NCBI GenBank assembly: GCA_030652255.1
Contig: JAUSAZ010000012.1
Location: 81,049 to 145,048, forward strand
Source of the DNA: Myxococcales bacterium
Lineage (GTDB): Bacteria > Myxococcota_A > Polyangia > Polyangiales > Ga0077539
Reading direction: 5' to 3'
DNA: 64,000 nucleotides
The notes below the pieces were generated by a model. That model worked only from the letters and a program-made list of their open reading frames with translations. It had not been told where the DNA came from and ran no database searches. The position numbers were made by a program, and so were the translations under genes. Below are positions 23,934 through 40,503 of this stretch, one piece after another (the stretch's first letter is position 1; each line of letters opens with the position of its first letter).

Positions 23934-24800
23934 ATGGGGGCCGCGATGCGGACCCGAGGCTGGCTTGGACTGTCGGTGCTCGGGGCGTGCTCCGACCCGC
24001 TGCCCTCGCCCTCCACGGTGGACGTCCTGCGCATCCTGGCGCTCACCACCGAGACGCCGGAGGTGCGCCCCGGCGCGGCGATCTCGGCGCGAGCGGTGTG
24101 GGCCGACCCCGTAGGCGGACGCACCATCCATTGGCGCTGGCGGCTCTGCGACCCCGGCGCGGCCGACGACCCGCGGGTCTGCGCCCGGCCGGACGGGGCC
24201 ACGGAGCTGGCGTCCGGCGAGGTCGACCGCGTGGAGGTGCCCGCCGCGAACCTCACGCTGCGCCCGGCGGAGACGGAGCGAACGTGGGTGCTCTACGCGA
24301 TCGCGTGCCCCGGGGCCGACGCGGTGATCGACCCCGGCGAGGCGCGCCTGGTGTGCCCGCGGGGGGACGGCTCGGAGGCCTTCCGCCGGGTGACGGTGCG
24401 CGCGACGGCGCCGCTCAACCGACCGCCGCGCATCGCGGCATGGAGTATCGGGCGCGCGGGCGCATCGACTCCGCTGGAGGACGGCGCCTCGGTGTCCGTG
24501 GGGTCGCTCGCGGCCTGTGACGGGGACTGTCCCCCGCTGACCCTCACGCTGACGCCCGCCCCCGACGCGGCCGAGGCCTTCGACGGCGGCGCCGAGTCGC
24601 TGATGGCGTCCGTGTACGTCGGCTCCGGGACGGTCGCCCCGCCGCGGGTGGTGACCGACCCCGGCGCGGCGGCGCCGATGGTCGCGCGCTGGACGCCGGG
24701 ACGAGTAGTGCTGGGAGGGGAGGTTGCCCGGGTGTGGGCGGTGCTGCGGGATCAGCGGGGCGGAGAGGCGGTGCGCGCGGTGACGATCACGGCGCGCTGA
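23934..24800 (+). CDS. Hypothetical lipoprotein
   Basis: Lipobox 'LSVLGAC'. Composition is protein-like, with conserved-looking Cys pairs. No family recognised. Confidence 0.55.
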   Translation: MGAAMRTRGWLGLSVLGACSDPLPSPSTVDVLRILALTTETPEVRPGAAISARAVWADPVGGRTIHWRWRLCDPGAADDPRVCARPDGATELASGEVDRVEVPAANLTLRPAETERTWVLYAIACPGADAVIDPGEARLVCPRGDGSEAFRRVTVRATAPLNRPPRIAAWSIGRAGASTPLEDGASVSVGSLAACDGDCPPLTLTLTPAPDAAEAFDGGAESLMASVYVGSGTVAPPRVVTDPGAAAPMVARWTPGRVVLGGEVARVWAVLRDQRGGEAVRAVTITAR

Positions 24801-24803
24801 GGA

Positions 24804-25826
24804 TCACTGGCAGCGGGCGTTGACGCAGGTGCGGCCGGCGGCGCAGTTGGCGGAGCGGGCGCACTCGGGGCGCTGCTCGTTGGTGCTGGTGCAGAGCGAG
24901 CGGCCCATGGTGTCGGTCGCGCAGAGGTTGAACTGCACGTCGACGGTCATGCAGGCGCCGTCGGGCATCGTGGTCGGCATCGGGCAGAGCCGGCGGCACG
25001 CGCCGTTGTTGCAGACCGACTCCGCGTTGCACTGCGAGTCCATGGTGCAGAAGGGGCGCGGGCGGGTGTCGACCCGGCACACGCCGCCGAGGCAGATCTG
25101 GCCGCCGGCCGTGCACTGGGCGTCGGTGGTGCAGGTCGCGAGGCAGGTGCCGCTCACGCAGAGCTGGGCGCTGGTGCAGCGACCGCCGCAGTCGGTGGTG
25201 TTGTTCGTGGGGTAGGTGCAGCGGCCGCTGGTGCAGACCTGGCCCGCGGCGCAGACGGTGGCGACGTTGGCCGCGGTGCAGCCCCCGACGACGCACTGGC
25301 CGTCGACGCACGACTGGCCCGAGCCCGTGCACTGGTAGTCGAACCGGCACTGGTTGGCGGTGGGCTGGCAGGTGCCGCCGAGGCACACCGGGGTGGCGGG
25401 CGTCGCGGCGCACTGGGCGTCGGTGGTGCAGCCGCCGCCCGGCACGCAGCGACGCGCGGCGGCGTCGCAGACGAGGCCCGCGGAGACGCGGGCGCAGTCG
25501 GTGTTGGCGGTGCAGCCGGGGACGCAGGCGCCCCGGGAGGTCTCGCAGTAGGAGCCGCTGGGGCAGCTCGCGGTGGTGGTGCACGAGGGCGCCGGGGCGC
25601 AGCGGCCGCTGGCGCAGTAGCCGCTGGGACAGTCGCGGTCGACCATGCAGGCCCGGGGGCCGGTGTCGGTGACGATCGGGGGGTTGTCGGTCGGGGTCCC
25701 GGCGTCGGTGACCGGGATGGCGTTGGGGCCGTCGCCGTCTTCGCTCCAGACCGGGCAACCGAGCAGCCACGCGCCGAGGGAGCCGACGATCATGAAGGAT
25801 TGAATAGTGATGGGGTGCTTGCGCAT
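24804..25826 (-). CDS. Cys-rich secreted lipoprotein
   Basis: Start at the internal ATG at 25826: 'MRKHPITIQSFMIVGSLGAWLLGC' (lipobox). The body is made of repeated 'C...D..C..G..C..G.C' modules. Confidence 0.7.
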   Translation of the reverse strand: MRKHPITIQSFMIVGSLGAWLLGCPVWSEDGDGPNAIPVTDAGTPTDNPPIVTDTGPRACMVDRDCPSGYCASGRCAPAPSCTTTASCPSGSYCETSRGACVPGCTANTDCARVSAGLVCDAAARRCVPGGGCTTDAQCAATPATPVCLGGTCQPTANQCRFDYQCTGSGQSCVDGQCVVGGCTAANVATVCAAGQVCTSGRCTYPTNNTTDCGGRCTSAQLCVSGTCLATCTTDAQCTAGGQICLGGVCRVDTRPRPFCTMDSQCNAESVCNNGACRRLCPMPTTMPDGACMTVDVQFNLCATDTMGRSLCTSTNEQRPECARSANCAAGRTCVNARCQ

Positions 25827-26145
25827 GGCGACGCCTCCAGGACGGTTCAGCCCTCGGAACGGGCTCAAAGGGGTAGCGGTGAGGTTGCTGGGCTGCTTCG
25901 ACGGACCGTTTCAGCATCTCCCATGCCGTCGCTCAAGTCCCGCCAATCGTTCGCGCGGGTCGGAGCATCATCGACGGCGTGAATGGACGTTCATAGCGCC
26001 CCCGTGAACGATCGCCCAACGGTCGTGCCCGCTGGAGGTCGCGTGGCGGTACGCGCCGTCCGAGGGATCGCTGCTGTTGTTTCGCCACCGCGGAGGGCAG
26101 TCTGTTATCGTCCACGCCGCCGCGAGAAGAGGGCAGACCAAGCGC

Positions 26146-28470
26146 ATGGACGTCGTATGTGAACGCTGCAAGGCCGAGTACGAATTTGACGACGCGCTGG
26201 TCTCCGAGCGCGGAACGACCGTCAAGTGCACGAACTGCAGCCATCAATTCAAGATCTTCCGCCCCACGTCGGAGTCCGACGCCGCGAAGGTGTGGAACCT
26301 CCGTCGACCTGACGGGACGGTGATCCCCTTCGACTCGCTCGCGGTGCTCCAGAAATGGATCCTCGAGGGCAAGGTCAGCAAGATGGACGAGATCTCCCGG
26401 GCGGGCGAAGGCTGGAAGAGCCTCGGCGCCATCGCGGAGCTCGAGAGCTTCTTCGCCACGGCCGAACTGCGTGCGTCGCAGAACGCCCCGGGCCGCACGG
26501 GGCAGCGCTTCCCCAGCATGAGCGGCGTGCGGGCGCCGACGCCCGCGCCGGGCATAAGCCGCTCGAACCCTGCCCGCGCCTCCCGGCCGCCGCCCGCGAT
26601 GAGCTCGCCGACGATCCGCCCGGGCGGCGCGGCGCCGCCACCGCCGCCGGTCTCTCTGCGGGCCCCCTCCCACGGTGGCGCCTCGCCGCCGCCCGTGCCC
26701 AACGCCCTGCGGGGCCCGTCTGCCGTGAAGAGCGGGGGCGCCCCGGCCGCGCCCAACACGATGGTGCAGATTCCTCCGCCGCCCAAGATGCCCGCGGAGA
26801 TGGGCCCTTCCCCCTCGCCTCCCCCGATCGCCGACCGGCACGAGCCCCTGGCCGACGAGGTCGAGCGCGCCCGCTCGCGGCCCGCAAGCCTGCCGCCCAA
26901 GGTGCTGCTCCCGCCGTTGCCCGCGCTCTCCACCCCGCCCCGTGACCTCGTCGATGACCAGGCCCCGACCCGATCGATGGCCTCCGACCCGCGGGCCCTG
27001 CGCGGCGCGCCGGTCGCCGGTCGCCGGAGCGGCCTCGGGGTAGGGCTGGTGGTCGGCGCCCTCGTGGCGGGCGGCGTGCTGTTGTTCTCCTATCAGACGG
27101 GCGTCTTTGGCCCGGCCGTTCCCTCCGCGGGCGCCAACGCGACGCGCGACACCGCCCGCCGCGATCGGGTCATCACCGACGCGGTCGAGCGCTCCCGGCG
27201 GTACACCCCCGCGGCGATGGACGAAGCGCGGGAAGAACTCTCCGCGGCCATCGTGCTGCGCCCCGACGACGCCGCGCTCATCGCGACCCGCGCGGCCGTG
27301 CTCGCCGCGTGGTCGGAGATGTCCACGCAGCAGGCCGCCGACCTCGACGCGCAGTCGAGCCTGCCGGGCGCCGACGCGCCGCGCCTGCAGGCCTCGGCCG
27401 AGCTCGCCCGCCGCGAGGGCACGATGCGGAAGGATCGCGCCCGCACCGACCTCCGCGCCGCCGAGGCGGCCATCGAGACCGTGGCGCCCGCCGAGCGTGC
27501 CCTGGTTGAAGCGCGGCTCGCCGACGTGGCCCGGGTGGTCGGCGCGCCCACGCTGGCCAACCACCTCGAGGGCGCGCGACGCGGTGCGCCAACGAATGAG
27601 TCGTCGCTCTACCTGGCCCTCGCGACGCTGACCGACGATCCGATGTCCGCCACCGCGGGGCTGCGCGCCGCGATCGGCGCCGACCCGCAGAACCAGCGGG
27701 CCCGCGTGGCCCTCGCCCGGCTGCTCCAGCGCCAGGGCGACGTGCGGGGCGCGCAGGAGCTCCTCGCCGAGGCCCTGCGGGCAGAGCCCGAGCACGAGGC
27801 CCTGCTGGGCCTCTCCCGGGCGCTCGGCGCGACCACCGTCGTGGCGACCCCCACCGCGACCGATGCAGGGACGCCGGACGCCGGCGTGACCGTGGCCGCG
27901 GTGACCACGCCCGTCGCGCCGCCCACCGCCCCGGTCGTGCCCCCCGCCGCGCCGCCGACCGCCCCGGTCGCAGCGCCGACCGCGGCGCCGGTGGCGCCCC
28001 GGCACGGGAGCAGCGACCCCAACGGCAGCCTCGCGGCGGCGATGGCGCCGACCCGCGACTACGACCGCCTCGTGCGCGACGCCGACACCTTGCAGCACGC
28101 CGGCCGCACCAGCCTGGCCCGCGAGCGTTACCAGCAGGCGCTCGCGGTGCGCGCCACGGGCTCCGAGGCCCTCACCGGGCTCGGCTTCGTCGAGCTCGAC
28201 CAGAACGCCGTCGGCGCGGCGATCTCCCGCTTCCGCCAGGCGCTCGCGAGCAACCCGCGGTACTCCGAGGCCTACATCGGGCTCGGAGAGGCCTACAGCC
28301 AGCAGCGCAGCTACGGGCAGGCCGTGCAGGCCTACCAGCAGTACCTCACCATCAACCCCGGTGGCTCGCGCTCGGAGATGGCGCGTCGACAGATCGAGTC
28401 GCTGCAGGAGCGGATGAACGCGGCCCGGGCGCCCGAGGCTCCGGGCGACGACGCCGCGACCAGCCCCTGA
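26146..28470 (+). CDS. MJ0042-type zinc-ribbon + GYF-like + TM + TPR protein
   Basis: 'MDVVCERCKAEYEFDD...VKCTNCSHQFKIF' is the zinc ribbon. 'WNLRRPDGTVIPFDSLAVLQKWILEGKVSKMDEISRAGEGWKSLG' is GYF_2-like. A Pro-rich linker, one TM (GLGVGLVVGALVAGGVLLF) and C-terminal TPRs (...AYIGLGEAYSQQRSYGQAVQAYQQYL) follow. Confidence 0.8.
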   Translation: MDVVCERCKAEYEFDDALVSERGTTVKCTNCSHQFKIFRPTSESDAAKVWNLRRPDGTVIPFDSLAVLQKWILEGKVSKMDEISRAGEGWKSLGAIAELESFFATAELRASQNAPGRTGQRFPSMSGVRAPTPAPGISRSNPARASRPPPAMSSPTIRPGGAAPPPPPVSLRAPSHGGASPPPVPNALRGPSAVKSGGAPAAPNTMVQIPPPPKMPAEMGPSPSPPPIADRHEPLADEVERARSRPASLPPKVLLPPLPALSTPPRDLVDDQAPTRSMASDPRALRGAPVAGRRSGLGVGLVVGALVAGGVLLFSYQTGVFGPAVPSAGANATRDTARRDRVITDAVERSRRYTPAAMDEAREELSAAIVLRPDDAALIATRAAVLAAWSEMSTQQAADLDAQSSLPGADAPRLQASAELARREGTMRKDRARTDLRAAEAAIETVAPAERALVEARLADVARVVGAPTLANHLEGARRGAPTNESSLYLALATLTDDPMSATAGLRAAIGADPQNQRARVALARLLQRQGDVRGAQELLAEALRAEPEHEALLGLSRALGATTVVATPTATDAGTPDAGVTVAAVTTPVAPPTAPVVPPAAPPTAPVAAPTAAPVAPRHGSSDPNGSLAAAMAPTRDYDRLVRDADTLQHAGRTSLARERYQQALAVRATGSEALTGLGFVELDQNAVGAAISRFRQALASNPRYSEAYIGLGEAYSQQRSYGQAVQAYQQYLTINPGGSRSEMARRQIESLQERMNAARAPEAPGDDAATSP

Positions 28471-28472
28471 CG

Positions 28473-31400
28473 ATGACCCCGGCCGCGCTGGACGACGAGG
28501 CCTTTGCACCGCTCGGCCCGTTCGAGCTGGAGGGCGACGAGGGGGGCGGAGAGTACTCGCGGCTGGAGGTGCTCCGGCTGCTGGGGGTGAGCGCCCGCGG
28601 GCCCGACGCGGCCGTGGCCCAGGAGCTCGCCCTCGTCTGGGCGGCGAGCGGATCCGTCGGGCTGGAGCGCGACGCGCTGGCGGCCTCCGAGCCGACGCCC
28701 GCCTCGCTCCGGCGCCGCGCCCTGCTCGACGTCGAGACCGGCCGGTGGACCGACGCGGCCCGCGCGGCGGAGGCGCTCACGGGCTTCGACGACACCGCGG
28801 CGCGGCGGGCGACGGCCTGGCACCTCTGGGCCTCCGCCGGCTCGATGGACGACGCGCGGCGGATGACGCGGGAGGGTGATCCCGCGCGCGTGGCGATGGC
28901 GCACCTCGCGCGATCGGCCGCGAGCGCCGAGGTGCTGGCGTCCGCCGCCGAAGCGGCGCAGCGCGACGGCGCGACGGAGGCCTGGCGGTCGCTCGCGGTG
29001 GACGCGTGGATCGCGGCGCCGGGCGCGCGCGGCGCGGAGTGCCTGGTCGCCGCGCTGCGGGCCGCCGGGCGGGGACGCGCCGCGGTGAGCGTCGCGCTCG
29101 AGGCCGCCGCGGAGGCGTACCTGAACGGCGGCGAGGTGGCGCTCCCGCGCGGCGACGACCCCGACGCGGGCGAGGCCGAGTCGGTGGCGATCTGGACGCT
29201 CCGCGCGCTGCTCCCGGGGCCCGAGGCCGCCGCGGCGCGCGAGACCCTGCGCGACCTGCTGGCCGACCGCGGACGCGCCGCCGAGCTCGCGGTGCGACTC
29301 CGCGTCGACGCGTGGTCGGCCCCGGAGGGCGCCCGCGCCGCGGCGTGGAAGGGCGTCGCGGCGATGGAGCTGCCGCACGACCCGCTGCTCGCGACCCGCG
29401 CGCTGGTGGAGGGCCTGCGGGCGCAGCCCGACGACGCCGAGGCGCTCGCGCTGCTGCGCACCCTCGCGGCCGAGCCGACGGTGGAGGGCGCGACGCGGGA
29501 CGCCGTCTGGGGCCTCGTGCGTAGCCCCGAGCTCAGCGCCGACCGGCGCAACGAGCTGCTGCTCTGGCTGGGCTCCCTCGAGGAGGCCGCGGGCGATTTC
29601 GCCGCCGCGGAGGCCGCGTATGCGAGCGTGCAGGGGGCGGTCGCGGAGGCCTTCGAGGCGCTCGCGCGGGTGTACGAGGGCGCGGCGCGGCAGGCGGCGC
29701 AGGCCGAGGCGGAGTTCGGGGCGCTGGCCTCGGCGGAGCCGGAGCGGCGGGCGCAGGCCCTCGACGCGGCGGTCGCGCGCTGCGCTGCGGCCCCGGGCGC
29801 CCTGGCCGGTGCGGGCGCTGCGCTGGAGACGCTCGCCGGGTTCGCCCTCGAGCACGCCGGGGCGGCGGGTTTGTGGGTCCGGGCGGCGCGGCGGGCGGTC
29901 GATCCTGGCACCCTCGTCGCGGTGCTGCGCCGGCTCGCGACCCGCAGCGCGCTCGCCGCGGTGCGACGCGAGGCCGTGCTTGAGTGCCTCACGCTCCCGG
30001 AGCTGGCGGCGGGCGGCGGCTCCGACGCCCTGGAGCTCCTGCGAGTCTACGCCGACGACCTCCCGGGCGACGCCACCGTCGCCGCGGCCCTCGCGGCGCT
30101 CGCCGAGCAGCGGGGCGACGAGTCGCTCACGCGGGACGCGATCCGCGCCGTCGCGATGGCCAGCGAAGACCCGGCCGAGCGCGACGTGCTGCAGCGCTTC
30201 GTCGGCACGCGCAGCGGGGTCTTCGAGGCCCTCGGGGCTGCCACCGAGGAGCCGAGCGCCTCGGTCGAGCGCGGCGATCGCCTCCGTCGCCTGCACGTCC
30301 TCCTCGGCGACAGCGTGACGCTGCTCGCGCTGCGCACCCGCGCCCTGATGGCGTCGGCGGGCGACTCCGGCGAGGCCCTCGCGGTGGCCCGGCGCTTCGT
30401 CGAGGCCGCGCCGTGGTCCCCGGAGGCGGTGTTCGCGTTCGCCGGCCTCACCCGGCTCGGCCACGACGGCGACGACATCGTCGCGTCCATCCGCGCGGCG
30501 CTGCGCTCCTGCGCCCGCCTGCCCGAGCTCGCTGCGCTCGTGCGGGGCGGGGTCGCGCGGCTCACGGCGCTCGGCGACGAGTCCGGCGTGCACCACGCGC
30601 TCGACGCCGCGACGGACGCTGGGCTGCTCGCCGACCGGCCGCTCGCGGATCTCGCCCTCTCGCGCCCGCACGGCGATGCCGCGGTGCTCGTGCGCCGGCT
30701 CGAGCTCGCGGTCGCGGCGAGCGACGCGCCCGACCCTGGATGGATCGCGCAGCTCATCGCGCTGCGCGAGGCCGCGGGCGATCCGCTCGGGGCGCTCGGG
30801 GCGAAGCTGCGGGGCGCCGACCCGGCGCGGGTCCGCGCGGAGGAGCTCGACCTCCTCGCGGACGCCGCGACGGACGACGAGGCCCAGGGGCGCTGGGTGC
30901 GGTGCGCCCTCGCCAACGGGCTGCCGCAGGTGGGCCTCCGGTGGCTCGCGCGGTGGGCCTCGGCGCGCGGCCCCGATGCGGGCGCGGCCCTGCGGCTGCG
31001 GTGCGCGGCCCGGGTCGCGTGGGCGGTGCAGGGCGACGGCGAAGGGGCGCTGGAGTTTCTCCGGGACGCCATGCGGGCGGAGGGCGACGCCGAGGACGTG
31101 CTCCAGGACGCCGACCTCATCGGGCGCCGGTCGGGCCTGCTCGACGGGCTGCTGTCGATCTACGACGACGCCGCGGGGGTGGCCGCGGGGGTGCACGGGC
31201 GCCGCGCGCTGCACTACCGCCGCGCGCTGGCGCAGGAGCACGGCGGCCGCTTCGCCGACGCCCTCGAGGCGCAGCTCGCGACCTTCCGGGAGACCCGCAA
31301 CATCGGCGCTTCGCTCCGCGCGGTGGAGCGGCTCGCGGGCGCGACGGGGCGCTGGGCGCCGATGCTGGAGGCCTACGAGGTCCTCGCGGCGGAGGCGCCG

Positions 31401-33383
31401 TCGGCCGAGGCGAAGCTGCAGTTCCTGCTGCGGTGCGCGGAGATCGCGCAGGCGCAGCTCCGCTCGCCGGAGCGGGCGCTCGCCTTCGAGGTGCAGGCCT
31501 GGCAGGTGAGCCGCTCGCGCTCGCTCTGGGACCTCGTCATCGAGCGCGCCCACGCGCTGCGCGCGAGCCACCCCGCGGCGGCGACGGCGGCGCTCAACAC
31601 CCTCGTCGACAGCGAGCTCGCCGCCGCGCAGCAGGCCTGGGACGACTCGCTCCGCGGGCTCCACTCGCTGCAGGCCCTCGACTGCGCGCTCACCGAGGCG
31701 CACGACCTCGATCGGGCGCTCGCCGCGATCGGGCTCTACCTGCGCCAGCACGAGGCGCCCCGGGTCGCGCGCAGCACCGTGCTCGAGATGATCGGCCGGC
31801 CGTCGGTGCCCGCGGATCTCCAGGCGGCGCTTCGGGGGTCCGAGGCGCTGGCGTCGACCCCGCCGCCGCCGGCGCCCGCGACCCATCCGCCGTCGCGCAT
31901 GGGCACCCTGGAGCTCGTCCTCGACGACGACCCGGTGTCGGACGCGGTCGAGGACGCGCCGTCGGCCGCGCCGACTCCGCCGCCGGTCGCGCTGCCCCAG
32001 TCGGGCCGCGAGGGCCAGGAGTGGATCTCCTTCGTCGCGGAGCCCCGGCCGGTCACCCCCGCGCCGACCCGCCCGGGGGCCTCGGAGCCGCCGCCGCCGG
32101 TGGTGGTCGCGCGCACGGTGCAGCCGCGCTTGCAGGACGCGATCGACGACCCGGGGCGCGACGTCGACACCTTCCTGATCACGTCGGTCACCCCGGCCAG
32201 CGCGCGGCCCGCGAGCACCCCGAAGCCGCCCCCGCCGCCCCCGCCGCCTGCCCCGGCGGCGGTCGAGGCCGTCGAGGTGCTGCACGACCGCGCCGCCCGC
32301 GGCGACGACGAGGCCGCGGTCGCCCTCGCCCAGCGCCTCGCGGCGGACCCCGATCGCGCCCACGAGGCCGCGGTGATACAGCGCGCCCGCTTCGACGCCG
32401 ACCCGACCCGCCTCGACGCCCTCGACGCCCTCATCGAGCTCGCCCGCCGCGGCGACCTCCGCGGCGAGGCGCTCGGGCTCAGCCAGGTGCGGGCCGTCCT
32501 GCGCGGCGACGCCCTCGAGCTGCACCCCCTGCACCCGATCGAGATCGAAGACCCGCCGGACGGCGTCGCGCGGGTTCTCCTCCCCGCCCGCCTCGGCCCC
32601 TTCGCCGAGCTCGGCGCGATGCTCTGGGACAGCGTCGGCGTCACCTGGCGCCGCGAGCTCCAGCGCTCCGGCGCGCGCGACGAGGGCGTCCGGCTCGCGC
32701 CGAGCTCCGCGGTGCTGCGCCCCTTCCAGGCCGCCCTTCGGCTGCTGCAGATGCCCCGCTCGACGACGCTCCTGCTGCGCGACGGGCCCGCCGCGGCGCC
32801 CGCCATCATCGCAGCCACGTCGCCGGTGTCGCTGGTGATGTCGCTCGAGCAGGCGACGGACACCCCCGCCGGGCACTTCGCCCTCGGCCACCACCTGGAG
32901 GGCGCCCGCACGGGGCACCTCCCGATGACCGCGCTCTCGCCCGAGGTGGCCGACCGCATGGTGCGCGCGCTCACCTTCGCGTTCGGCGAAGCCCCGGCGG
33001 AGCGGGTCGATCCCGCGGTGGCGCAGGCCGCGGCGCAGCTCATGGACGCCACGCCGACGCGGCTCCACCGGCAGGTGCGCGCGTACGTCGAGGAGCTCGG
33101 CGGCTCGCTCACCCCGGCGCGGTGGCGCGCGGTCATCGACCAGGCGCGGGCCCGCGCGGGGCTGCTGGTGTCAGGGGACTTCTTCGAGTCGTCGCGGTGG
33201 CTGCTGGCCAGCGCGCCCGCGGAGGTGCCGCGCTCGCTCTCGTGGGCCTTCGTCGAGTGGGAGCCCCTGCGCGACCTCCTGCGCTTCGCCGTCAGCGAGG
33301 AGTACCTCATGCTGCGCTGGCCCAACTCCGACGGGCGGCGTCGGCGCGTGTCCAGCCGCCCCTCCCCGCCCAGCCCCCGCTGA
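28473..33383 (+). CDS. Giant (1636 aa) Ala/Leu-rich helical-repeat protein, no TM
   Basis: The ATG lies 2 nt after the upstream stop. The frame is uninterrupted for 4.9 kb, and its helical composition contrasts with the R/G-rich shadow ORF on the other strand. It has an internal poly-Pro hinge (KPPPPPPPPAP) and a distinct C-terminal domain. Confidence 0.75.
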   Translation: MTPAALDDEAFAPLGPFELEGDEGGGEYSRLEVLRLLGVSARGPDAAVAQELALVWAASGSVGLERDALAASEPTPASLRRRALLDVETGRWTDAARAAEALTGFDDTAARRATAWHLWASAGSMDDARRMTREGDPARVAMAHLARSAASAEVLASAAEAAQRDGATEAWRSLAVDAWIAAPGARGAECLVAALRAAGRGRAAVSVALEAAAEAYLNGGEVALPRGDDPDAGEAESVAIWTLRALLPGPEAAAARETLRDLLADRGRAAELAVRLRVDAWSAPEGARAAAWKGVAAMELPHDPLLATRALVEGLRAQPDDAEALALLRTLAAEPTVEGATRDAVWGLVRSPELSADRRNELLLWLGSLEEAAGDFAAAEAAYASVQGAVAEAFEALARVYEGAARQAAQAEAEFGALASAEPERRAQALDAAVARCAAAPGALAGAGAALETLAGFALEHAGAAGLWVRAARRAVDPGTLVAVLRRLATRSALAAVRREAVLECLTLPELAAGGGSDALELLRVYADDLPGDATVAAALAALAEQRGDESLTRDAIRAVAMASEDPAERDVLQRFVGTRSGVFEALGAATEEPSASVERGDRLRRLHVLLGDSVTLLALRTRALMASAGDSGEALAVARRFVEAAPWSPEAVFAFAGLTRLGHDGDDIVASIRAALRSCARLPELAALVRGGVARLTALGDESGVHHALDAATDAGLLADRPLADLALSRPHGDAAVLVRRLELAVAASDAPDPGWIAQLIALREAAGDPLGALGAKLRGADPARVRAEELDLLADAATDDEAQGRWVRCALANGLPQVGLRWLARWASARGPDAGAALRLRCAARVAWAVQGDGEGALEFLRDAMRAEGDAEDVLQDADLIGRRSGLLDGLLSIYDDAAGVAAGVHGRRALHYRRALAQEHGGRFADALEAQLATFRETRNIGASLRAVERLAGATGRWAPMLEAYEVLAAEAPSAEAKLQFLLRCAEIAQAQLRSPERALAFEVQAWQVSRSRSLWDLVIERAHALRASHPAAATAALNTLVDSELAAAQQAWDDSLRGLHSLQALDCALTEAHDLDRALAAIGLYLRQHEAPRVARSTVLEMIGRPSVPADLQAALRGSEALASTPPPPAPATHPPSRMGTLELVLDDDPVSDAVEDAPSAAPTPPPVALPQSGREGQEWISFVAEPRPVTPAPTRPGASEPPPPVVVARTVQPRLQDAIDDPGRDVDTFLITSVTPASARPASTPKPPPPPPPPAPAAVEAVEVLHDRAARGDDEAAVALAQRLAADPDRAHEAAVIQRARFDADPTRLDALDALIELARRGDLRGEALGLSQVRAVLRGDALELHPLHPIEIEDPPDGVARVLLPARLGPFAELGAMLWDSVGVTWRRELQRSGARDEGVRLAPSSAVLRPFQAALRLLQMPRSTTLLLRDGPAAAPAIIAATSPVSLVMSLEQATDTPAGHFALGHHLEGARTGHLPMTALSPEVADRMVRALTFAFGEAPAERVDPAVAQAAAQLMDATPTRLHRQVRAYVEELGGSLTPARWRAVIDQARARAGLLVSGDFFESSRWLLASAPAEVPRSLSWAFVEWEPLRDLLRFAVSEEYLMLRWPNSDGRRRRVSSRPSPPSPR

Positions 33384-33401
33384 CGGGACCGCGGAGCGGC
33401 A

Positions 33402-34352
33402 GTGCGCGCGCAGGTCGAACTCACCTCGGAGTGCCCCGAGTGCCACACCCGCGGGGTGTGGCTGGAGCTGTACGACCCGGCCGTCGCCGCGAGCGCCCTC
33501 GGGCTGCCCGCGGAGGCCCGCTGTCGGCTGTGCGCCGCGGCGCGGGTCGGGCAGGTGACGGCGGGATCGTCTGCGCTGCGAGCGGCGCCGTGGCCCGCCG
33601 GGGGATGCCCCTACTGCGCGCACCCGCTCGACGAGGGTGACCTCGCGGCGCACGGGTGCCGGGCGTGCGGAGCCCGCGCGGCGCTGGTGAGCACCCGGGC
33701 GGGCGACGGGCTGGGCGACGCCGAGGCGCTCGATCGCGCGCTGCGCAGGCTCATGGCGGACGAGGGCGACGACGACGTGGCGGGCTTCGTGCGTCGGACC
33801 TTCGGCAGCGACGACCTCGCGGCCCTCGCGGCGCGCTACGCGGAGGGCGCGGCGGTGGACACGGCCCTCGACGGGGGGACGGGGTTTCTCACGGGCGCGG
33901 TCGCGCGGGTGGCCTCCGAGGCGAAGCCGGGGAGGCCGAGCGACCCCGCGGCGCAGCCCGACGACCGCCGCGCGATGCTGCTCGCGCTGGTGAGCGTGCT
34001 GATGGCGGACGGGCTGCGCGACCCGCGGGAGATGCCGCTGGTGGAGGCCTTCCTGGCCGCGGAGGGCCTGGCGCCGCTGTCCGCCGAGGAGCTCCGGGTG
34101 CACCGGCCGGTGGAGATCGCCGCGCGGGTGCCGGTGGGGCGGCGCGAGGGGCTCGTGTCGCTGATGGCGCAGCTCGCGTACGCCGACGGCGTGGCCGACC
34201 CCAGCGAGGTGCGGGTGCTGCGGGCCTTCGCCGACGCCTGGACCGTGCCCCAGGAGGACGTCGACCGCTGGCTGGAGACCTACCGCGCGGCGCGGCGCTC
34301 GCGGCAGCAGCGCCTGCTCGACCGGCTGCGGGCGTTCTTCCTTTCGGGTTGA
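33402..34352 (+). CDS. Double zinc-ribbon + TerB-like domain protein
   Basis: Two ribbons: 'CPECH...CRLC' and 'CPYCAHP...CRACG'. C-terminal 'DDRRAMLLALVSVLMADGLRDPREMPLVEAFL...LVSLMAQLAYADGVADPSEVRVLRAFADAW' resembles the TerB / DjlA-N helical fold. Confidence 0.65.
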   Translation: MRAQVELTSECPECHTRGVWLELYDPAVAASALGLPAEARCRLCAAARVGQVTAGSSALRAAPWPAGGCPYCAHPLDEGDLAAHGCRACGARAALVSTRAGDGLGDAEALDRALRRLMADEGDDDVAGFVRRTFGSDDLAALAARYAEGAAVDTALDGGTGFLTGAVARVASEAKPGRPSDPAAQPDDRRAMLLALVSVLMADGLRDPREMPLVEAFLAAEGLAPLSAEELRVHRPVEIAARVPVGRREGLVSLMAQLAYADGVADPSEVRVLRAFADAWTVPQEDVDRWLETYRAARRSRQQRLLDRLRAFFLSG

Positions 34353-34374
34353 GCGCTATCATCGCGCCACGGCG

Positions 34375-35379
34375 ATGAGCGAGACCACGACGGGGACCGG
34401 TGGGGGGGCGCAGGCGCAGGCGCAGGAGGCGCAGCGCGACGGGGTGGCGCGCTCCATCGTGCGGGTGCAGCAGCAGTTCGACCTGGTGATGGACAACGTG
34501 CGCCGGGTGATCGTCGGCAAGGACGACGTCATCGCGCGGCTGCTCGTGGCGATGACCGCGCGGGGCCACGTGCTGCTGCGCGACGTGCCGGGCGTCGGAA
34601 AGACCATGCTGGCGCGCAGCGTCGCGGCGTCGATGGCGTGCGTGTTCAAGCGCATCCAGTTCACGCCCGACCTGCTGCCGATGGACGTCACCGGGTCGAA
34701 CGTGTTCGACATGCGCCGGCGGGTGTTCGAGTTCCAGCGGGGGCCGGTGTTCACCAACCTGCTGCTCGCCGACGAGATCAACCGCGCGCCGCCGAAGACC
34801 CAGAGCGCCCTGCTCGAGGTGATGGAGGAGCGGCAGGTCACCGTCGAGGGCGAGACCCACCCCCTCGACGAGCCCTTCCAGGTCATCGCCACCATGAACC
34901 CGCTCGACCACGAGGGCACCTACGCCCTCCCCGCGGCGCAGCTCGACCGCTTCATGGTGATGCTCTCCCTCGGCTACCCCGCCGAGGCCGCGGAGGTGCA
35001 CATGCTCAACGTGCACCTCCAGCCCGACGCGCCCCTCGCGCAGCTCCAGCCCGTCATCACCCGCGACGACTTCCTCGGCTGGCAGCGCACCGTCCCGATG
35101 ATCTTCCTCAGCGACGAGCTCAAGCGCTACGCCGTCGCCGTGGTGCAGTCGCTCCGCGGCGACCCGCGCAACCTCCAGTCCATCTCGCCGCGCTCGACCA
35201 TCCAGCTCGCGCGCGCGGCGCAGTCCCGCGCGATGCTGCGCGGCCGCGACTACGTCGTCGCCGAGGACATCCAGACCGTCGCCCCGGACGTGCTCGGGCA
35301 CCGGGTGCTGCTCGCCGACGGGCGCGCGGGCCGGGAGTTCGTCATCGAGGCGCTGCACCGGGTGGCCGTCCCGCGATGA
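34375..35379 (+). CDS. MoxR-family AAA+ ATPase
   Basis: Walker A 'LRDVPGVGKTMLA', Walker B 'LLADEINRAPPKTQSALLEVMEE', and 'ATMNPLDHEGTYALPAAQLDRF'. 334 aa. Confidence 0.92.
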   Translation: MSETTTGTGGGAQAQAQEAQRDGVARSIVRVQQQFDLVMDNVRRVIVGKDDVIARLLVAMTARGHVLLRDVPGVGKTMLARSVAASMACVFKRIQFTPDLLPMDVTGSNVFDMRRRVFEFQRGPVFTNLLLADEINRAPPKTQSALLEVMEERQVTVEGETHPLDEPFQVIATMNPLDHEGTYALPAAQLDRFMVMLSLGYPAEAAEVHMLNVHLQPDAPLAQLQPVITRDDFLGWQRTVPMIFLSDELKRYAVAVVQSLRGDPRNLQSISPRSTIQLARAAQSRAMLRGRDYVVAEDIQTVAPDVLGHRVLLADGRAGREFVIEALHRVAVPR

Positions 35380-37061
35380 GCCCGCCGCGCGCCGGGAGCG
35401 TGGTGCTGCTGGTCGCGCGGGTGCTCTTCCACACCGCCCTGCTCGCGGCGCTGCCCTTCATCGTCGGCGGCCTCGCGGGCTTCTTCGCCGAGGTGTCGCA
35501 GGTGAGCGAGACCCTGCCCCGGCTCATCGAGCGCGCCTCGGTGGTGCTGCTCCCGCTGCAGGTGACGCAGGGCGTCTGCGTCTTCGTGAAGGTGCGCCGC
35601 GAGCTCTCGCTCACCGACGCCGCCCCCACCGCGCGCGCCGTGCTCGAGAGCGCGCTGCGCCACACCCAGGTAATGACCGACAAGGGCCTCGGGCTCTTCT
35701 TCGGCGCCCTCGCCGCGGTCGTGCTCTCGCTCACGCTCAAGTTCGCCGAGCTCGGGATCATCGCCGTGCTCGGGCTCGCGACCCTCTACGCGGTGGTCAC
35801 CACGGGCGTGCTGCTGAGCACCGTCGTGGCGCAGCGCTTCGAGGAGCGCCTCGCGGCCCGGGGCGGGATCATCGGGCGGGAGTTCGTCCCCGTGGTGGTG
35901 GAGTCCGGCGAGAGCGTCGAGGAGCTCTTCCACTTCGAGCGCGTGCCGGTTCCCTGGGGCTTCGTGGTTCAGGTGCACCAGCGCCTCCCGGCGCGCCTCG
36001 CCACGGAGAGCCGCCACGTCGTCGGCGCCGCGGTCTCCATGCGACGGGTGACCCTCTCGCGCCCGGTGCACCGCACGCCGCGCGGGGACTACCGCATCCC
36101 CCCGGCGAGCGTGGCCTTCACCGACCTCTTCGGGCTCACCCGCGTCGCCATCGCGCAGGCCGCCGAGGCCCGGCTGCGGGTGCTCCCGCGGCTGCACCCC
36201 GTGGCCATGGCCGCCGCGCCGCGCTCGCCCGCGCCGCAGGAGGGCGCGCTCGCGGTGCTGCGCCGGGCCCCGACGGAGGACTGGTTTCGCGTGCGGGAGT
36301 ACCTGCCGGGCGACGACACCCGGCGCATCCACTGGAAGCTCAGCGTGAAGCTCGGGCACCTCCAGGTGCGGCAGCCAGAGACCGTGCCGGTGGTGCGTCG
36401 GCGGGTGCGCCTCGTGCTCGACAACCACCTCCCCCGAAGCTACGCGCACGGCGAGGAGGTCGACCTCGTGCTGGGCGACGTCCTCGACCGCCTCGTCGAG
36501 CTCTGGATCTCCCTCGCCCGCACGCTCTCCGAGCGCGGCGAGTCGGTGCAGATCGCCGTGGCGACGGGCGACCCGGCGCGGCCCGCGGAGACGCTCGAGC
36601 TCACCCGCGGGGCGCAGCCGCGGCTGCTCGAGCTGGGCTCGCGGGTGGAGTGGCAGTCGGAGACGGACTTCCACCAGGCGAGCGAGGGGTTGGAGAAGGG
36701 TCAGGCCGTCGTGGTGGTGACGGCGAGGTTCCTGCCGCTGCCCCCGCTGCCGCCGCCCGCGGCGGGCACCGTGACGTGGGTGTTCCTGCCGGTGGCCGAG
36801 GAGATCCCGACGGCGGTGCCGCGGCGCGCGGTGGAGAAGCTCCTGGCGTTCTTCACCCAGCCCTTCGCGCCCGGCGCCGAGGAGAACGCCCTGCTCGCGT
36901 CGGCGCGGCGCGGCAACGCCCGGCGGCGGCTGGAGACCGTGCGCGCCAACACCGCCCACCTCACGGCGGAGGGCTCGGCCGCCGCGGAGGCGACGCTCCG
37001 CGCGCGGGGGGAGCCCTTCTACCGGGTGTCCCGCAGCGGCGTGGCATACCTGCTCGGGTAA
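35376..37061 (+). CDS. DUF58 (VWA-like) protein with extended polytopic N-terminus
   Basis: The ATG overlaps the moxR stop (ATGA). It has 4-5 N-terminal TM helices, then the DUF58 signature 'FRVREYLPGDDTRRIHWKLSVKLGHLQVRQPE'. Confidence 0.85.
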   Translation: MSPPRAGSVVLLVARVLFHTALLAALPFIVGGLAGFFAEVSQVSETLPRLIERASVVLLPLQVTQGVCVFVKVRRELSLTDAAPTARAVLESALRHTQVMTDKGLGLFFGALAAVVLSLTLKFAELGIIAVLGLATLYAVVTTGVLLSTVVAQRFEERLAARGGIIGREFVPVVVESGESVEELFHFERVPVPWGFVVQVHQRLPARLATESRHVVGAAVSMRRVTLSRPVHRTPRGDYRIPPASVAFTDLFGLTRVAIAQAAEARLRVLPRLHPVAMAAAPRSPAPQEGALAVLRRAPTEDWFRVREYLPGDDTRRIHWKLSVKLGHLQVRQPETVPVVRRRVRLVLDNHLPRSYAHGEEVDLVLGDVLDRLVELWISLARTLSERGESVQIAVATGDPARPAETLELTRGAQPRLLELGSRVEWQSETDFHQASEGLEKGQAVVVVTARFLPLPPLPPPAAGTVTWVFLPVAEEIPTAVPRRAVEKLLAFFTQPFAPGAEENALLASARRGNARRRLETVRANTAHLTAEGSAAAEATLRARGEPFYRVSRSGVAYLLG

Positions 37062-37065
37062 GCGC

Positions 37066-38205
37066 TCAGGGCGAGGCGACGCAGCCGAGGCCGCCCCACT
37101 CCGCCGTCGTGCAGCGGTGCCGGGCGGGGCAGACGTTGTCGACGCCGTGCTCGTCGCAGGGCTGGCCCGCGCCCGCGATGACCGGCGGCGAGAGCGCCAC
37201 GCGGCGGGTCTCCGAGCGCAAGCCCCGCGCGTCGACGAGGGTCACCCGCAGCGCCTGCATCACCGCCGCGACCCGCGGGCCGACGTGCAGCACCGCGCGG
37301 CCGACGAAGCGGTCGCCCTCGTCGCGCGAGAGGTACGCGGTGGTGGTGGTGATCGACGCGTCGTCGGCGCCGAGCACCTCGACCTCGGCGCGGCTGGTGT
37401 CGCGGGAGGTGTCCGAGCCCTCCACCCGAAGGCGGACGGTCTCGTCCCACGCGAAGGCGCTCGCCGCTTCGAGCGCCGGGGCGGTGGCCTCGACGCACAC
37501 GCCCACGCCCGACGGCAGTCCCGCGCCGTCACGACAGAACCACCCGTCGCGGCACGCGCTCGCGGGCGCCGAGAGCGAGCAGCGGCCCTCCGCCGTGACG
37601 GGGGGCGCGATGTCGATGCTCCACGCGCAGCCGGTGGAGACGCAGCCCGAGGCGAGGAGGAAGGTGCTCTCGCCGGCCGCGAGCTCGAGGTCGAAGGAGA
37701 GCGGCCGCGTGAAGGGATTGGTCGAGTGGAAGTCGGTGAACTGCCGGCACGCGACCTCGGTGCCCGCGCCCTCGCAGGCGCGGTGCGCCGAGAAGCTCCA
37801 GAGGTTGGAGCCCTGCGCCGAGACGCGCCACAGGCCCGCGACCGGCGCCGTGAAGCGCATCCAGCGGTCGCCGCCGCCCTGCCAGGTCTGGCATGGGCCG
37901 ACGCCTGATCGGGCGCCCGCGGTCGCGCGCAGCGAGTAAGCCCCGGAGCGCGTGGCGTAGGCGTTGACGTCCACCGCGCGCGCCGCGCAGGCGGGGCCCG
38001 CGTCGGGGAGGTCCACCGGGTCGGGCGCGTCGACGATCGCGGGGACTACGTCGACCGCGGGCGCCTCCGCGTCGACCGCGGACGCCGCGTCGGCGGAGGC
38101 GTCCACCGCGCTCGCAGCGTCGGCGGGCGACGACGACGACGCCGTCTCCGCGCAGCCCGCCAACATCCACGCCATCCCAGGTACCAGCCAGCCGTGCTTC
38201 GTCAT
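37066..38205 (-). CDS. Hypothetical Cys-containing lipoprotein
   Basis: Lipobox 'MAWMLAGC', then an acidic Ala/Asp-rich linker with a short duplicated 'DAASAVDA' motif, then a Cys-paired globular region. No family recognised. Confidence 0.6.
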   Translation of the reverse strand: MTKHGWLVPGMAWMLAGCAETASSSSPADAASAVDASADAASAVDAEAPAVDVVPAIVDAPDPVDLPDAGPACAARAVDVNAYATRSGAYSLRATAGARSGVGPCQTWQGGGDRWMRFTAPVAGLWRVSAQGSNLWSFSAHRACEGAGTEVACRQFTDFHSTNPFTRPLSFDLELAAGESTFLLASGCVSTGCAWSIDIAPPVTAEGRCSLSAPASACRDGWFCRDGAGLPSGVGVCVEATAPALEAASAFAWDETVRLRVEGSDTSRDTSRAEVEVLGADDASITTTTAYLSRDEGDRFVGRAVLHVGPRVAAVMQALRVTLVDARGLRSETRRVALSPPVIAGAGQPCDEHGVDNVCPARHRCTTAEWGGLGCVASP

Positions 38206-38303: not shown

Positions 38304-39272
38304 GTGCGGACACCGGGCGTTGTCGTCGCGCTCTCGCTCTGTTTCCTCCCGCGCCTCGCGGGGGCGCAGGACGCGCTCGCCTTCACCTGGACCGCCCCGC
38401 CCGGGTGCCCCTCGCGCGACGCCGTCGTGGCGGGCGTCGCCCGGCTGCGGCCCAACCTCACCCGCGCCGCCTCGGGGCTGCGCGCGACGGCCACGGTCAC
38501 GCCGACGCCGCGCGGTCGCTGGCGGGTGCGGGTGCACACCGAGGTGAACGGCGACGGCGGCGACCGGATGCTGGAGGGGCGCACCTGCGCGCTGGTCGCG
38601 GAGGCCGCGGCGGTGGTGCTGGCGCTCGCCTCGGACGCGCTCCCCGACGCGACGCCTGCGCTCGAGCGCCCGGCGCTCCCGGAGTCCGTGGTGCAGGTCG
38701 ACGACCCCGAGTCGGCCCTCCCCCGACCCGCGGTGCTGCCCCCTCCCCCGGCGCCTGTGCCGCGCTGGGTCGACCTCGGGCTCGATGCCGTCCTCGACGC
38801 GCTCGCCTTCGCCGGGCCGGCGGTGTCGCTCGGGGTGCACGGCGCCCTCGACCGCGGCGCCCTGCGGCTGGAGCTCGGCCTGGCCCAGCAGCTCCCCACC
38901 ACGCTCGACGGCGCGCGGCCAGGCACCGGGGCGGAGGTGCTCGCGACCACGCTCACCGCGCGGGCCTGCGCGATGCGGGTGCGGCCGGTGCTCGCCGTGG
39001 GTCTCTGTGCCGCGGCGACCGGGGGCGTGATGTGGGCGACGGCCTTCGGGCTCCAGCGCAACGACACCGCGGCGTGGCCCTGGGCGACGGCGGGCGCGGG
39101 CGCGGCGCTGCGGGTGGGCCCCGGGGGTGGGCGCTTCGCGGTGATCGCGCACGTCGAGGGGGTGGCCAACCTCACCCGGCCCCGCTTCGTGGTGGAGGGC
39201 GTCGGGGTCACCGGCGAGGTCGTGGCCTTCGGGCTCGTGACGAGCCTCGGGCTCGAAGCGCGATGGCCGTGA
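38304..39272 (+). CDS. Hypothetical secreted protein, first gene of the ECF operon
   Basis: The GTG at 38304 gives 'VRTPGVVVALSLCFLPRLAGAQD' (signal peptide). The C-terminal half is Gly/Ala/Leu-rich with beta-strand-like alternation. Its 3' end overlaps the sigma-factor start by 10 nt. Confidence 0.5.
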   Translation: MRTPGVVVALSLCFLPRLAGAQDALAFTWTAPPGCPSRDAVVAGVARLRPNLTRAASGLRATATVTPTPRGRWRVRVHTEVNGDGGDRMLEGRTCALVAEAAAVVLALASDALPDATPALERPALPESVVQVDDPESALPRPAVLPPPPAPVPRWVDLGLDAVLDALAFAGPAVSLGVHGALDRGALRLELGLAQQLPTTLDGARPGTGAEVLATTLTARACAMRVRPVLAVGLCAAATGGVMWATAFGLQRNDTAAWPWATAGAGAALRVGPGGGRFAVIAHVEGVANLTRPRFVVEGVGVTGEVVAFGLVTSLGLEARWP

Positions 39273-39856
39273 CGGATCGCCCGGACCCCGGCCACTCCCC
39301 CGGCACGATGGAGACCGCGCTCCCCGCGACTGCGCCCGGCGCGACCGACTTCGACGCGGTGTACCGCGAACATTTCCCTTTCGTGTGGCGCAACCTCCGG
39401 CGGCTCGGGGTCGCCGAGGCCTACGTCGAGGATGCCGCGCAGGAGGTCTGGGTGGTGGTGCATCGGCGGCTGAAGGACTTCGAGGGTCGGTCGTCGGTGC
39501 GCACCTGGCTCTTCGGCATCGCGATGCGCACCGCCAGCGACCACCGCCGGTGGCGCCGCCGCAAGGACCCGCGCGACCGCAGCGACGAGGTCGACGCCGT
39601 CGCCTCGACGGCCCCGTCCCCGGAGGCGATGACCGAGCGCGCGCAGGCGGGCCGGGTGCTCGACGCGCTGCTCGACGAGCTCCCCGAGGAGCGCAGGGTG
39701 GTGTTCATGCTGGCCGAGCTGGAGCAGATGTCCGCGCCCGAGATCGCCCTCGCCGTGGGCGCCCCGTTGAACACCGTGTACTCGCGGCTGCGCGTGGGGC
39801 GCGCCGAGTTCGAGGCCGCCGCGCAGCGCTACCGCAGCGCCAGGAGCCCGTCATGA
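39263..39856 (+). CDS. ECF-type RNA polymerase sigma-70 factor
   Basis: Region 2 'FDAVYREHFPFVWRNLRRLGVAEAYVEDAAQEVWVVVHRRL..F.G.SSVRTWLFGIA'. Region 4 'ERRVVFMLAELEQMSAPEIALAVGAPLNTVYSRLRVGR'. Confidence 0.88.
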   Translation: MAVTDRPDPGHSPGTMETALPATAPGATDFDAVYREHFPFVWRNLRRLGVAEAYVEDAAQEVWVVVHRRLKDFEGRSSVRTWLFGIAMRTASDHRRWRRRKDPRDRSDEVDAVASTAPSPEAMTERAQAGRVLDALLDELPEERRVVFMLAELEQMSAPEIALAVGAPLNTVYSRLRVGRAEFEAAAQRYRSARSPS

Positions 39857-40503
39857 ACGACCTCTCCCCCGAGACCCGCGGGCTCCTCGCGTCGCTCGCC
39901 CCGAGCCACGACCCGCCGCCCGACGTCGCCGCGCGGGTGCACGCCCGCGTCGCCGAGCGCATCGCCGCCGCGCCCCCGGCGACCCCCGCGCTCGCCTGGA
40001 AGCTCTGGGCGGGCGTCGGGGTCACCGTCCTCGCGCTCGGCTGGTGGGCGACCCGTCCGCCCTCCTCCGTCGCTCCGCCGCCCCCGCGCCCGGTGCCCGC
40101 CGTCGTGGCGCCCGCACCCCCGCCGCCGCCGCCCGTCGTGGTCGCACCGCTGGTCGTGGCCGCGCCGCTCGCGATGCCCGTGCCTGCGCCGGTCGCAGCG
40201 CCCGCACCCGCGGCGCCGCGGGTCGAGCGCGATGATCTGCCCGCCGAGCTTCGCTGGATCGAGCGCGCCCAGACCGCCCTCGCAGCGGGTGACCCGGGCG
40301 CGGCGCAGGCGGCGCTGCGGGGCCACGCGCGGGCCTTCCCACGAGGGCACCTCGCGGAGGAGCGCGAGGCCCTCTCGGTGCAGGCGCTCTGCGCGTCGGG
40401 TCGGGCGGAGGAGGCGCGCCGGGCGGCGGCGGCCTTCGTGGCGAGGCACCCCACGTCGCCGCAGTCGGCGAGGGTACGGCGGACATGCGTCGACGCGCCC
40501 TGA
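39853..40503 (+). CDS. Anti-sigma-factor-like single-pass membrane protein
   Basis: ATGA overlap with the sigma gene. Short cytoplasmic N-terminus, one TM (LWAGVGVTVLALGWWA), a Pro-rich spacer and a C-terminal TPR-like helix pair. The call rests on position and topology. Confidence 0.6.
   Translation: MNDLSPETRGLLASLAPSHDPPPDVAARVHARVAERIAAAPPATPALAWKLWAGVGVTVLALGWWATRPPSSVAPPPPRPVPAVVAPAPPPPPPVVVAPLVVAAPLAMPVPAPVAAPAPAAPRVERDDLPAELRWIERAQTALAAGDPGAAQAALRGHARAFPRGHLAEEREALSVQALCASGRAEEARRAAAAFVARHPTSPQSARVRRTCVDAP

Follow-up and report, generated by a model that had tools for sequence, protein, structure and literature searches.

Five genes on the + strand of a Myxococcales bacterium (GenBank assembly GCA_030652255.1), which we call g1 to g5, lie end to end at positions 26146–37061 of a 64,000-nucleotide stretch of contig JAUSAZ010000012.1 (positions 81,049 to 145,048 of the contig; hereafter the window). 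A comparison with 27 loci related to this block, each from an uncultured member of the Myxococcota (Polyangia-like metagenome-assembled genomes, MAGs), leads us to read the block as two modules, conserved independently of each other, that meet head to tail in one lineage; we assign this reading a probability of roughly 0.8. Module A consists of g1, a membrane protein with an N-terminal zinc ribbon (ZnR), and g2, a giant helical protein. Module B consists of g3, a TerB protein with two zinc ribbons, g4, a MoxR-type AAA+ ATPase, and g5, a membrane protein of the DUF58 type. The anatomy of the modules, their separability and their taxonomic restriction are observed directly in these loci, and the specific mechanisms that we propose for them are held at much lower confidence than the two-module composite itself. 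Modules and mechanisms together form the explanation that we favour as a whole, rating it somewhat better than an even chance.

Gene order in the window and in related loci

A pattern scan for g3 returned 14 loci among 185,579 species-representative genomes, all of them in MAGs of uncultured Myxococcota that carry the label Polyangiales, Myxococcaceae or Deltaproteobacteria. Synteny was assessed by tblastn of all window genes against these loci. In close relatives (g3 identity 60–96%; loci L002, L003 and L007–L013) the order g2-g3-g4-g5 is kept throughout, and g1 is present in all seven of those with a contig that reaches upstream of g2 (L002 and L008–L013). The full five-gene block is confined to loci with a g3 identity of at least 60%. 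In more distant relatives (g3 identity 40–45%; L014–L016, L019 and L020) g3, g4 and g5 are tightly linked and no g1 or g2 was found within 10 kb upstream of g3, where unrelated genes such as a thioesterase and kinases are located. Here g5 is followed, at a spacing of 0–4 nucleotides (nt), by a further gene, g6 (L014 13733–15049, L015 13734–15059, L016 13784–15115, L019 14337–15674 and L020 13727–15043). It encodes a protein of ~440 amino acids (aa) with about six transmembrane (TM) helices and a conserved C-terminal part, which gave no Pfam or PDB match and has no homologue in the window.

The reverse arrangement is seen for the other half of the block. Six loci hold distant members of the g2 family with 32–47% identity (L021, L022, L023, L024/25, L026 and L027); in all six a g1 homologue directly precedes the g2-like gene, and g3-g5 are absent after it, the 3' side being taken instead by a convergent OmpA gene, an acetyltransferase gene or others. 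Since g1-g2 pairs occur without g3-g5, and g3-g5 without g1-g2, we suggest that these are two separately conserved cassettes that were joined in one lineage. An earlier note on this DNA, made from the window alone, had proposed a single five-part system; the synteny comparison divides on this claim, with all five genes together in the close relatives and the halves apart in the distant loci.

Within module B the links differ in strength. A MoxR gene follows g3 directly in all 14 species-level loci, and g5 lies directly downstream of g4, an order that recurs in 12 of the 14. One locus (L017, 449–2415) keeps the g3-g4 pair only, without g5, which argues that the link between TerB and MoxR is tighter than that between MoxR and DUF58 in the g3 family. 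The genes after the L017 pair have no relation to g5; judged by eye, they look CcmE-like, fatty-acid hydroxylase-like and HIT-like.

Because the window has a G+C content of ~75%, raw lists of open reading frames are noisy, and genes were picked by codon-position G+C, with GC3 of 0.92–0.99 and GC1 above GC2 for the five + strand genes. The calls are g1 at 26146–28470 (774 aa), g2 at 28473–33383 (1636 aa), g3 at 33402–34352 (316 aa, GTG start), g4 at 34375–35379 (334 aa) and g5 at 35376–37061 (561 aa). Direct reading of the junctions bears out the close packing described before: g1 and g2 are joined as TGA-CG-ATG, leaving 2 nt, gaps of 18 nt and 22 nt follow g2 and g3, and g4 and g5 overlap in ATGA. 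The flanks are likewise as described, with a 319-bp divergent intergenic region upstream (25827–26145, bounded by a − strand gene at 25826) and a convergent lipoprotein-like gene downstream (37066–38205, − strand), which terminates 4 nt past the end of g5. The divergent region is the presumed promoter region for g1 onward, and presumed only, since our promoter scan found no sigma-70 consensus.

A terminator scan gave one hairpin-like candidate, within the last part of g3, a yield not above that of shuffled sequences, and no credible terminator between the modules (g2/g3). The g2-g3 gap is 9–25 nt in nine of nine close relatives, and this constancy makes co-transcription of the block likely; in the lineage of the window a transcript covering all five genes is plausible and probably made. 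A contig of the MAG GCA_030692645.1 carries a stretch identical to the window that starts in the 3' part of g2 and runs past g5. In the seven close relatives in which g1 could be followed, genes for a 288-aa protein and a Cys-rich protein are also syntenic, as is an aromatic amino acid lyase gene in six of the seven. As these flanks are unrelated to the block, conservation in the close relatives is not specific to the five genes.

The g1-g2 pair

The cytoplasmic part of g1 would comprise a zinc ribbon (aa 1–36; Zn_ribbon_4/MJ0042, 7e-13 by Pfam and NCBIfam), a GYF-like segment (aa ~47–105, a sub-threshold match to Pfam GYF_2) and a proline-rich linker (aa ~110–290). A single TM helix (aa 294–320) leads to a periplasmic part in which Pfam and NCBIfam place TPRs (aa ~500–556 and 650–750, within a region of ~500–753). 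The zinc ribbon, TM helix and TPRs claimed for g1 in the earlier note are thus found again, and the GYF segment is seen at sub-threshold level only. The first 115 residues of g1 are 66–99% identical across all orthologues, and this head is conserved even where the linked giants share just ~32–35% identity. Such strong conservation suggests that the head has a conserved ligand in the cytoplasm.

Ala makes up 22% of g2, Leu 13% and Arg 10%, and neither a Pfam domain above threshold nor a convincing TM helix was found in it. A profile of the N-terminal part of the family matches consensus TPR proteins in the PDB at 5e-11, and in a Pfam scan of five distant family members one (P0161) was strongly TPR-rich; we take g2 to be a probable cytoplasmic, helical, TPR-like giant. 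A proline-rich hinge (aa 1128–1263; 31854–32261, + strand) is followed by a conserved C-terminal domain without family assignment (aa ~1267–1615; 32271–33317, + strand). The absence of TM helices, the Ala/Leu-rich composition, the hinge and the distinct C-terminal domain all agree with what had been noted from the sequence.

The last ~350 residues are the best-conserved part of g2 among distant homologues. AlphaFold2, run from a 24-sequence alignment, predicts for this domain a mixed alpha/beta fold, helical with a small three-stranded sheet (pLDDT 86, pTM 0.84). The domain gave no Pfam match and no PDB sequence match, and the fold check proposed for it, a Foldseek search with the AlphaFold2 model, returned no significant PDB match. 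The best Foldseek PDB matches were the metalloproteases MATCAP, ACE, M32, M3 and M48 (E≥0.19, TM-score ≤0.2), and we rejected a zincin-like protease on these values; the domain is also without a conserved HExxH or other metal-ligand motif. An LGxxxExxR motif is restricted to close members and lost in distant ones. Homology of the domain to g6 of the distant loci was likewise rejected (hhalign probability 0.9%). A profile of the domain matched 873 cluster representatives among 1.84 billion at E≤1e-3, 382 of them reaching 1e-10, almost always at the C-terminus of proteins of 1400–2700 aa. The annotations of ten distant giants read either 'TPR repeat protein' or 'hypothetical'; where an organism is given, it is a Polyangiaceae MAG. 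The 873 matches suggest that giants with this type of C-terminal domain are common in Polyangia-type bacteria.

The design of the pair recalls two proteins of the Agl-Glt focal-adhesion machinery, which drives gliding in Myxococcus xanthus. GltJ (AgmX) is composed of a zinc ribbon, a GYF domain, a linker, a TM helix and a periplasmic TonB-C domain, and its GYF domain binds a proline-rich sequence; its authors describe ZnR-GYF proteins as widespread switch modules of receptor-like membrane proteins with varied partners (PMC11135422). GltI (AgmK), a cytoplasmic TPR protein of 3822 aa, ends in a large helical domain and is predicted to bind the GYF domain of GltJ (PMC11761067). The order of zinc ribbon, GYF-like segment, flexible proline-rich linker and single TM helix in g1 would be that of GltJ. 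The ribbons are similar in sequence, the best PDB match of the g1 ribbon being that of GltJ/AgmX (7zok; E 3.8e-4 for the single sequence, 5e-5 for the profile). By architecture the adjoining g2 can be likened to GltI, as a TPR-type giant of the cytoplasm in which the C-terminal domain is set apart. There are also differences. Unlike GltJ, g1 has TPRs and not TonB-C on its periplasmic side: no TonB_C was found in g1 by Pfam, and aa 500–753 are matched by TPR families only. Against the NCBIfam model for GltJ (NF033761) g1 scores 16 bits, with a cutoff of 450, over aa 1–41 only, and g2, with 1636 aa, is less than half as long as GltI. No other agl or glt genes were seen in the neighbours scanned. 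The likeness to GltJ and GltI raised earlier therefore stands for the architecture and the ribbon and fails for orthology: on these scores g1 is not a GltJ orthologue. Module A is best described as a GltJ/GltI-like pair in architecture, with a predicted C-terminal domain that has no assignment.

The TerB-MoxR-DUF58 module

The N-terminal domain of g3 (aa 1–150) is beta-rich and contains two CxxC...CxxC zinc ribbons and three helices; it is joined by a disordered linker (aa 157–182) to a helical TerB domain (aa 186–314). Both features named in the earlier note, the paired ribbons and the TerB domain, hold up. The TerB match (Pfam PF05099) reaches 40.3 bits with a cutoff of 24.4 (E 4.4e-10), and eight cysteine ligands are conserved, C11 and C14 being near-invariant and C41, C44, C69, C72, C86 and C89 invariant. 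The TerB domain carries paired ADG..D/E motifs. Modelling by AlphaFold2 (pLDDT 78) and a Foldseek search, which had been suggested as a check, gave the TerB-like structure 2h5n (PG1108) as the top match of the C-terminal domain (probability 0.96, E 0.05).

In its above-cutoff score, paired ADG...E motifs and 2h5n fold, the domain resembles those of known TerB proteins such as tellurite TerB, the N-terminal part of DjlA and the Shango and Bunzi proteins. In g3, unlike in these proteins, it shares its polypeptide with a new N-terminal domain bearing two zinc ribbons, and the gene partner is MoxR rather than ter genes, a J-domain or helicases. The family is small, with 20 matches among 5.8 billion proteins. 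Across related loci g3 shares 40–96% identity, as against 75–98% for g4, and it is the fastest-evolving member of module B. We read this rate as fitting, because an adaptor that sets specificity might evolve in such a way.

The g4 protein is a standard MoxR-type AAA+ ATPase of the AAA_3 class, as had been proposed. Pfam gives AAA_3 at 9e-63 (210 bits, cutoff 27) and AAA_lid_2 at 1.5e-15 (57 bits), the P-loop (PGVGKT) and Walker B (LLADE) motifs are intact, and the best PDB match is 2r44 (1.2e-67). In two of the close relatives, L002 (10978–11969) and L009 (10978–11965), apparent frameshifts break the MoxR gene into two or three tblastn pieces, and in L002 it is called as two genes. Since identity stays at 90–95%, these are probably assembly errors and not pseudogenes.

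The g5 protein starts with about four hydrophobic or TM helices, which agrees with the long membrane N-terminus claimed for it; its DUF58 assignment, by contrast, falls just under the Pfam cutoff in the window and is carried by its orthologues, ten of ten of which match DUF58 (best E 1.7e-5). The signature REYxPGDDxRRIHWK is found at aa ~305–325, and REYxxGDDxRRIxWK is invariant in the family. The VWA-like region has no metal ion-dependent adhesion site (MIDAS): LDNHLP stands where DxSxS is expected, and the family has LD(N/T)xxP.

A MoxR gene with DUF58, VWA and TPR neighbours is a known and functionally unresolved pattern, and the Bat operon is defined by the VWA membrane proteins BatA and BatB with MIDAS, and by BatD, next to a MoxR-DUF58 pair (PMC5700661). 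Module B shares with the known MoxR-DUF58 pairs (Bat-like in Bacteroides, Borrelia and Leptospira; MoxR-DUF58-transglutaminase in actinobacteria) the order of a MoxR gene and an overlapping DUF58 gene, the association with the membrane, and the addition of lineage-specific partners to the core. It differs from these clusters in the g3-type partner upstream of MoxR, a combination that our scan of 185,579 species found only in the 14 uncultured Myxococcota. It also contains no VWA/BatA-D or transglutaminase genes, and its g5, unlike known DUF58 partners of MoxR, lacks a MIDAS and starts with about four TM helices. Among the five proteins and ten neighbours no VWA or Bat family match was found. 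The model for MoxR-vWA-beta-propeller (bpMoxR) systems scores 33.8 bits against g4, compared with 210 for AAA_3. Unlike in such systems no vWA Pfam match was seen, and RCC1 propellers are present in some loci only and are not adjacent. PADLOC returned no meaningful match for the five proteins, the best value for g3 being E 0.0011 to an unnamed candidate and the match of g4 being confined to the P-loop. The view that this is not a named system is upheld by the PADLOC result and by the absence of Bat-type VWA genes. Module B is most simply described as a MoxR-DUF58 core with a new TerB partner, and would be neither a Bat operon nor a known defence system.

Possible roles, rival explanations and neighbouring genes

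In module A, g1 and g2 would form a receptor-plus-scaffold pair, g1 spanning the inner membrane and g2 serving as a cytoplasmic platform. The GYF-like domain of g1 would putatively dock on a proline-rich segment, for which the hinge of g2 is the obvious candidate. Docking would tether the platform to the membrane and couple periplasmic inputs to cytoplasmic partners, and the periplasmic TPRs of g1, perhaps together with the Cys-rich lipoprotein encoded beside it, would give the connection to the outside. In module B, going by what is known of the families, the MoxR ring, a hexamer, would use ATP to remodel or mature a membrane-associated client, which would be presented by the membrane-anchored, MIDAS-less DUF58/VWA-like g5, and g3 may act as a membrane-proximal adaptor or sensor. 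Both the binding partners and the biological role are what we infer from these resemblances, assembly of the cell envelope or of a membrane complex being the most likely role.

Few bacterial gene pairs that lack a defined function are as widespread as MoxR-DUF58, and a variant with an obligate TerB/zinc-ribbon partner offers a new handle on what MoxR ATPases recognise. The combination of a ZnR/GYF switch with a giant TPR platform is known experimentally from the Myxococcus gliding machinery only, and the g1-g2 design is found again as a self-contained cassette in each of the 16 loci examined. The carriers are all uncultured, and the modules are of immediate value as a defined target on which structures and interactions can be predicted.

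Several points weigh against the two-module reading. Separability was judged locus by locus, and the two modules may be functionally coupled across loci; every locus, moreover, comes from an uncultured MAG. The tight g2-g3 spacing and the absence of g6 in the close relatives fit a functional merger as well as a chance adjacency. Two domain assignments are borderline: Pfam GYF_2 is found in four of eight g1 orthologues, sub-threshold in each (best E 0.0085), and g5 itself scores 22.8 bits against DUF58 (PF01882), just under the cutoff of 23.4. In one rival explanation the five genes would encode an integrated machine in which the TerB-MoxR-DUF58 proteins assemble or disassemble the g1-g2 scaffold, the halves being encoded apart elsewhere. 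The tight junctions in the window, the short g2-g3 gap in every close relative and the lack of a terminator between the modules speak for it, as does the absence of g6 where g1-g2 is attached, which could mean that one partner has replaced another. We nevertheless consider a single machine unlikely, since the halves lie apart in every more distant locus, the conservation in close relatives weighs little when unrelated flanks are equally syntenic, and no domain of g3-g5 points to g1 or g2. The ribbon match to 7zok, the GltJ-like order of g1 and the adjoining TPR-like giant with a distinct C-terminal domain, as in GltI, could also mean that module A is paralogous to the GltJ/GltI portion of the machinery for gliding or spore coats (Agl-Glt or Nfs), with a role in motility or adhesion. 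We find this distinctly unlikely in view of the low score of g1 against the GltJ model, which covers the zinc ribbon only, the periplasmic TPRs in place of TonB-C, the shortness of g2, the lack of further glt or agl genes in the scanned neighbours, and the statement of the GltJ authors that ZnR-GYF proteins are widespread with varied partners (PMC11135422). An extension of the same idea, in which a GltJ/GltI-like platform is wired to an AAA+ remodeller, would have g3 recruit MoxR and its DUF58 anchor to the giant, so that ATP drives assembly or disassembly of a focal-adhesion-like envelope complex; the giant's C-terminal domain would then be a docking or regulatory head shared with GltI. This scheme is speculative and, in our estimate, quite improbable.

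Two further readings start from module B. A MoxR-DUF58 core and a TPR protein in one gene string are reminiscent of a Bat-type (Bacteroides aerotolerance-like) operon in which g1 would play the TPR role of BatC, and g1 has a weak NCBIfam match to BatC (E 0.0067; 15.9 bits with a cutoff of 175). The absence of VWA/BatA-D genes already contradicts such an operon, there being no BatA or BatB VWA protein with MIDAS and no BatD; g5 also lacks the MIDAS and the TPR protein is part of module A, which is separable, so that a Bat operon is very improbable. Shango and Bunzi systems contain TerB domains and a gene for a BrxC/BrxD-like ATPase lies 4.7 kb downstream of the block, which makes anti-phage defence of the TerB kind, as a Shango- or Bunzi-like membrane surveillance system, a possible lead. 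We saw no support for it: the PADLOC search was negative for the five proteins, a scan of viral contigs found no relatives, and the locus has no effector of the helicase or nuclease kind. The chromosomal context, with its housekeeping flanks, is stable across relatives, and the conservation of MoxR is unlike that of fast-turnover defence genes. We give defence hardly any credence.

The two-module composite remains our preferred reading, and module A may extend beyond g1 and g2. Divergent from g1 is a gene (24804–25826, − strand) for a 340-aa Cys-rich lipoprotein with a signal peptide, an LLGC lipobox and Cys-rich repeats. It holds the same divergent position in all close relatives with a contig reaching that far, and homologues lie divergently beside g1-like genes in L022 (39% identity) and L026 (46% identity). 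This lipoprotein may be a third member or accessory of module A. The gene beyond it (23934–24800, + strand) encodes the 288-aa protein, which has no Pfam match; it is found upstream in all close relatives with contigs reaching there, and L026 has a homologue (30% identity) beside its Cys-rich gene.

On the other side of the block, the BrxC/BrxD-like ATPase domain (Pfam 2e-22) belongs to a 684-aa protein (41766–43820, − strand) with no other BREX genes nearby. In L002 the next called gene, ~0.9 kb past g5, encodes a 440-aa protein with faint BrxC_BrxD/NACHT matches. Beside a sigma-54 activator, ~10 kb from the MoxR gene, lies the gene for a nitric oxide reductase of the qNOR type (45770–49010, − strand), a NorB that carries a cytochrome c-like domain. 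A NorQ/NorD-type maturation link between the two was rejected, as g4 is an AAA_3-class MoxR and not CbbQ/NorQ, and the downstream region is not conserved in relatives. An RCC1 protein is encoded just upstream of g3 in L004–L006/L018 and not in the other distant loci. In the window, an RCC1-repeat propeller is part of a four-gene string (38304–41759, + strand), together with a 322-aa membrane protein, an extracytoplasmic function (ECF) sigma factor and a 216-aa TPR-like protein, and L003 and L012 keep the string downstream of the block.

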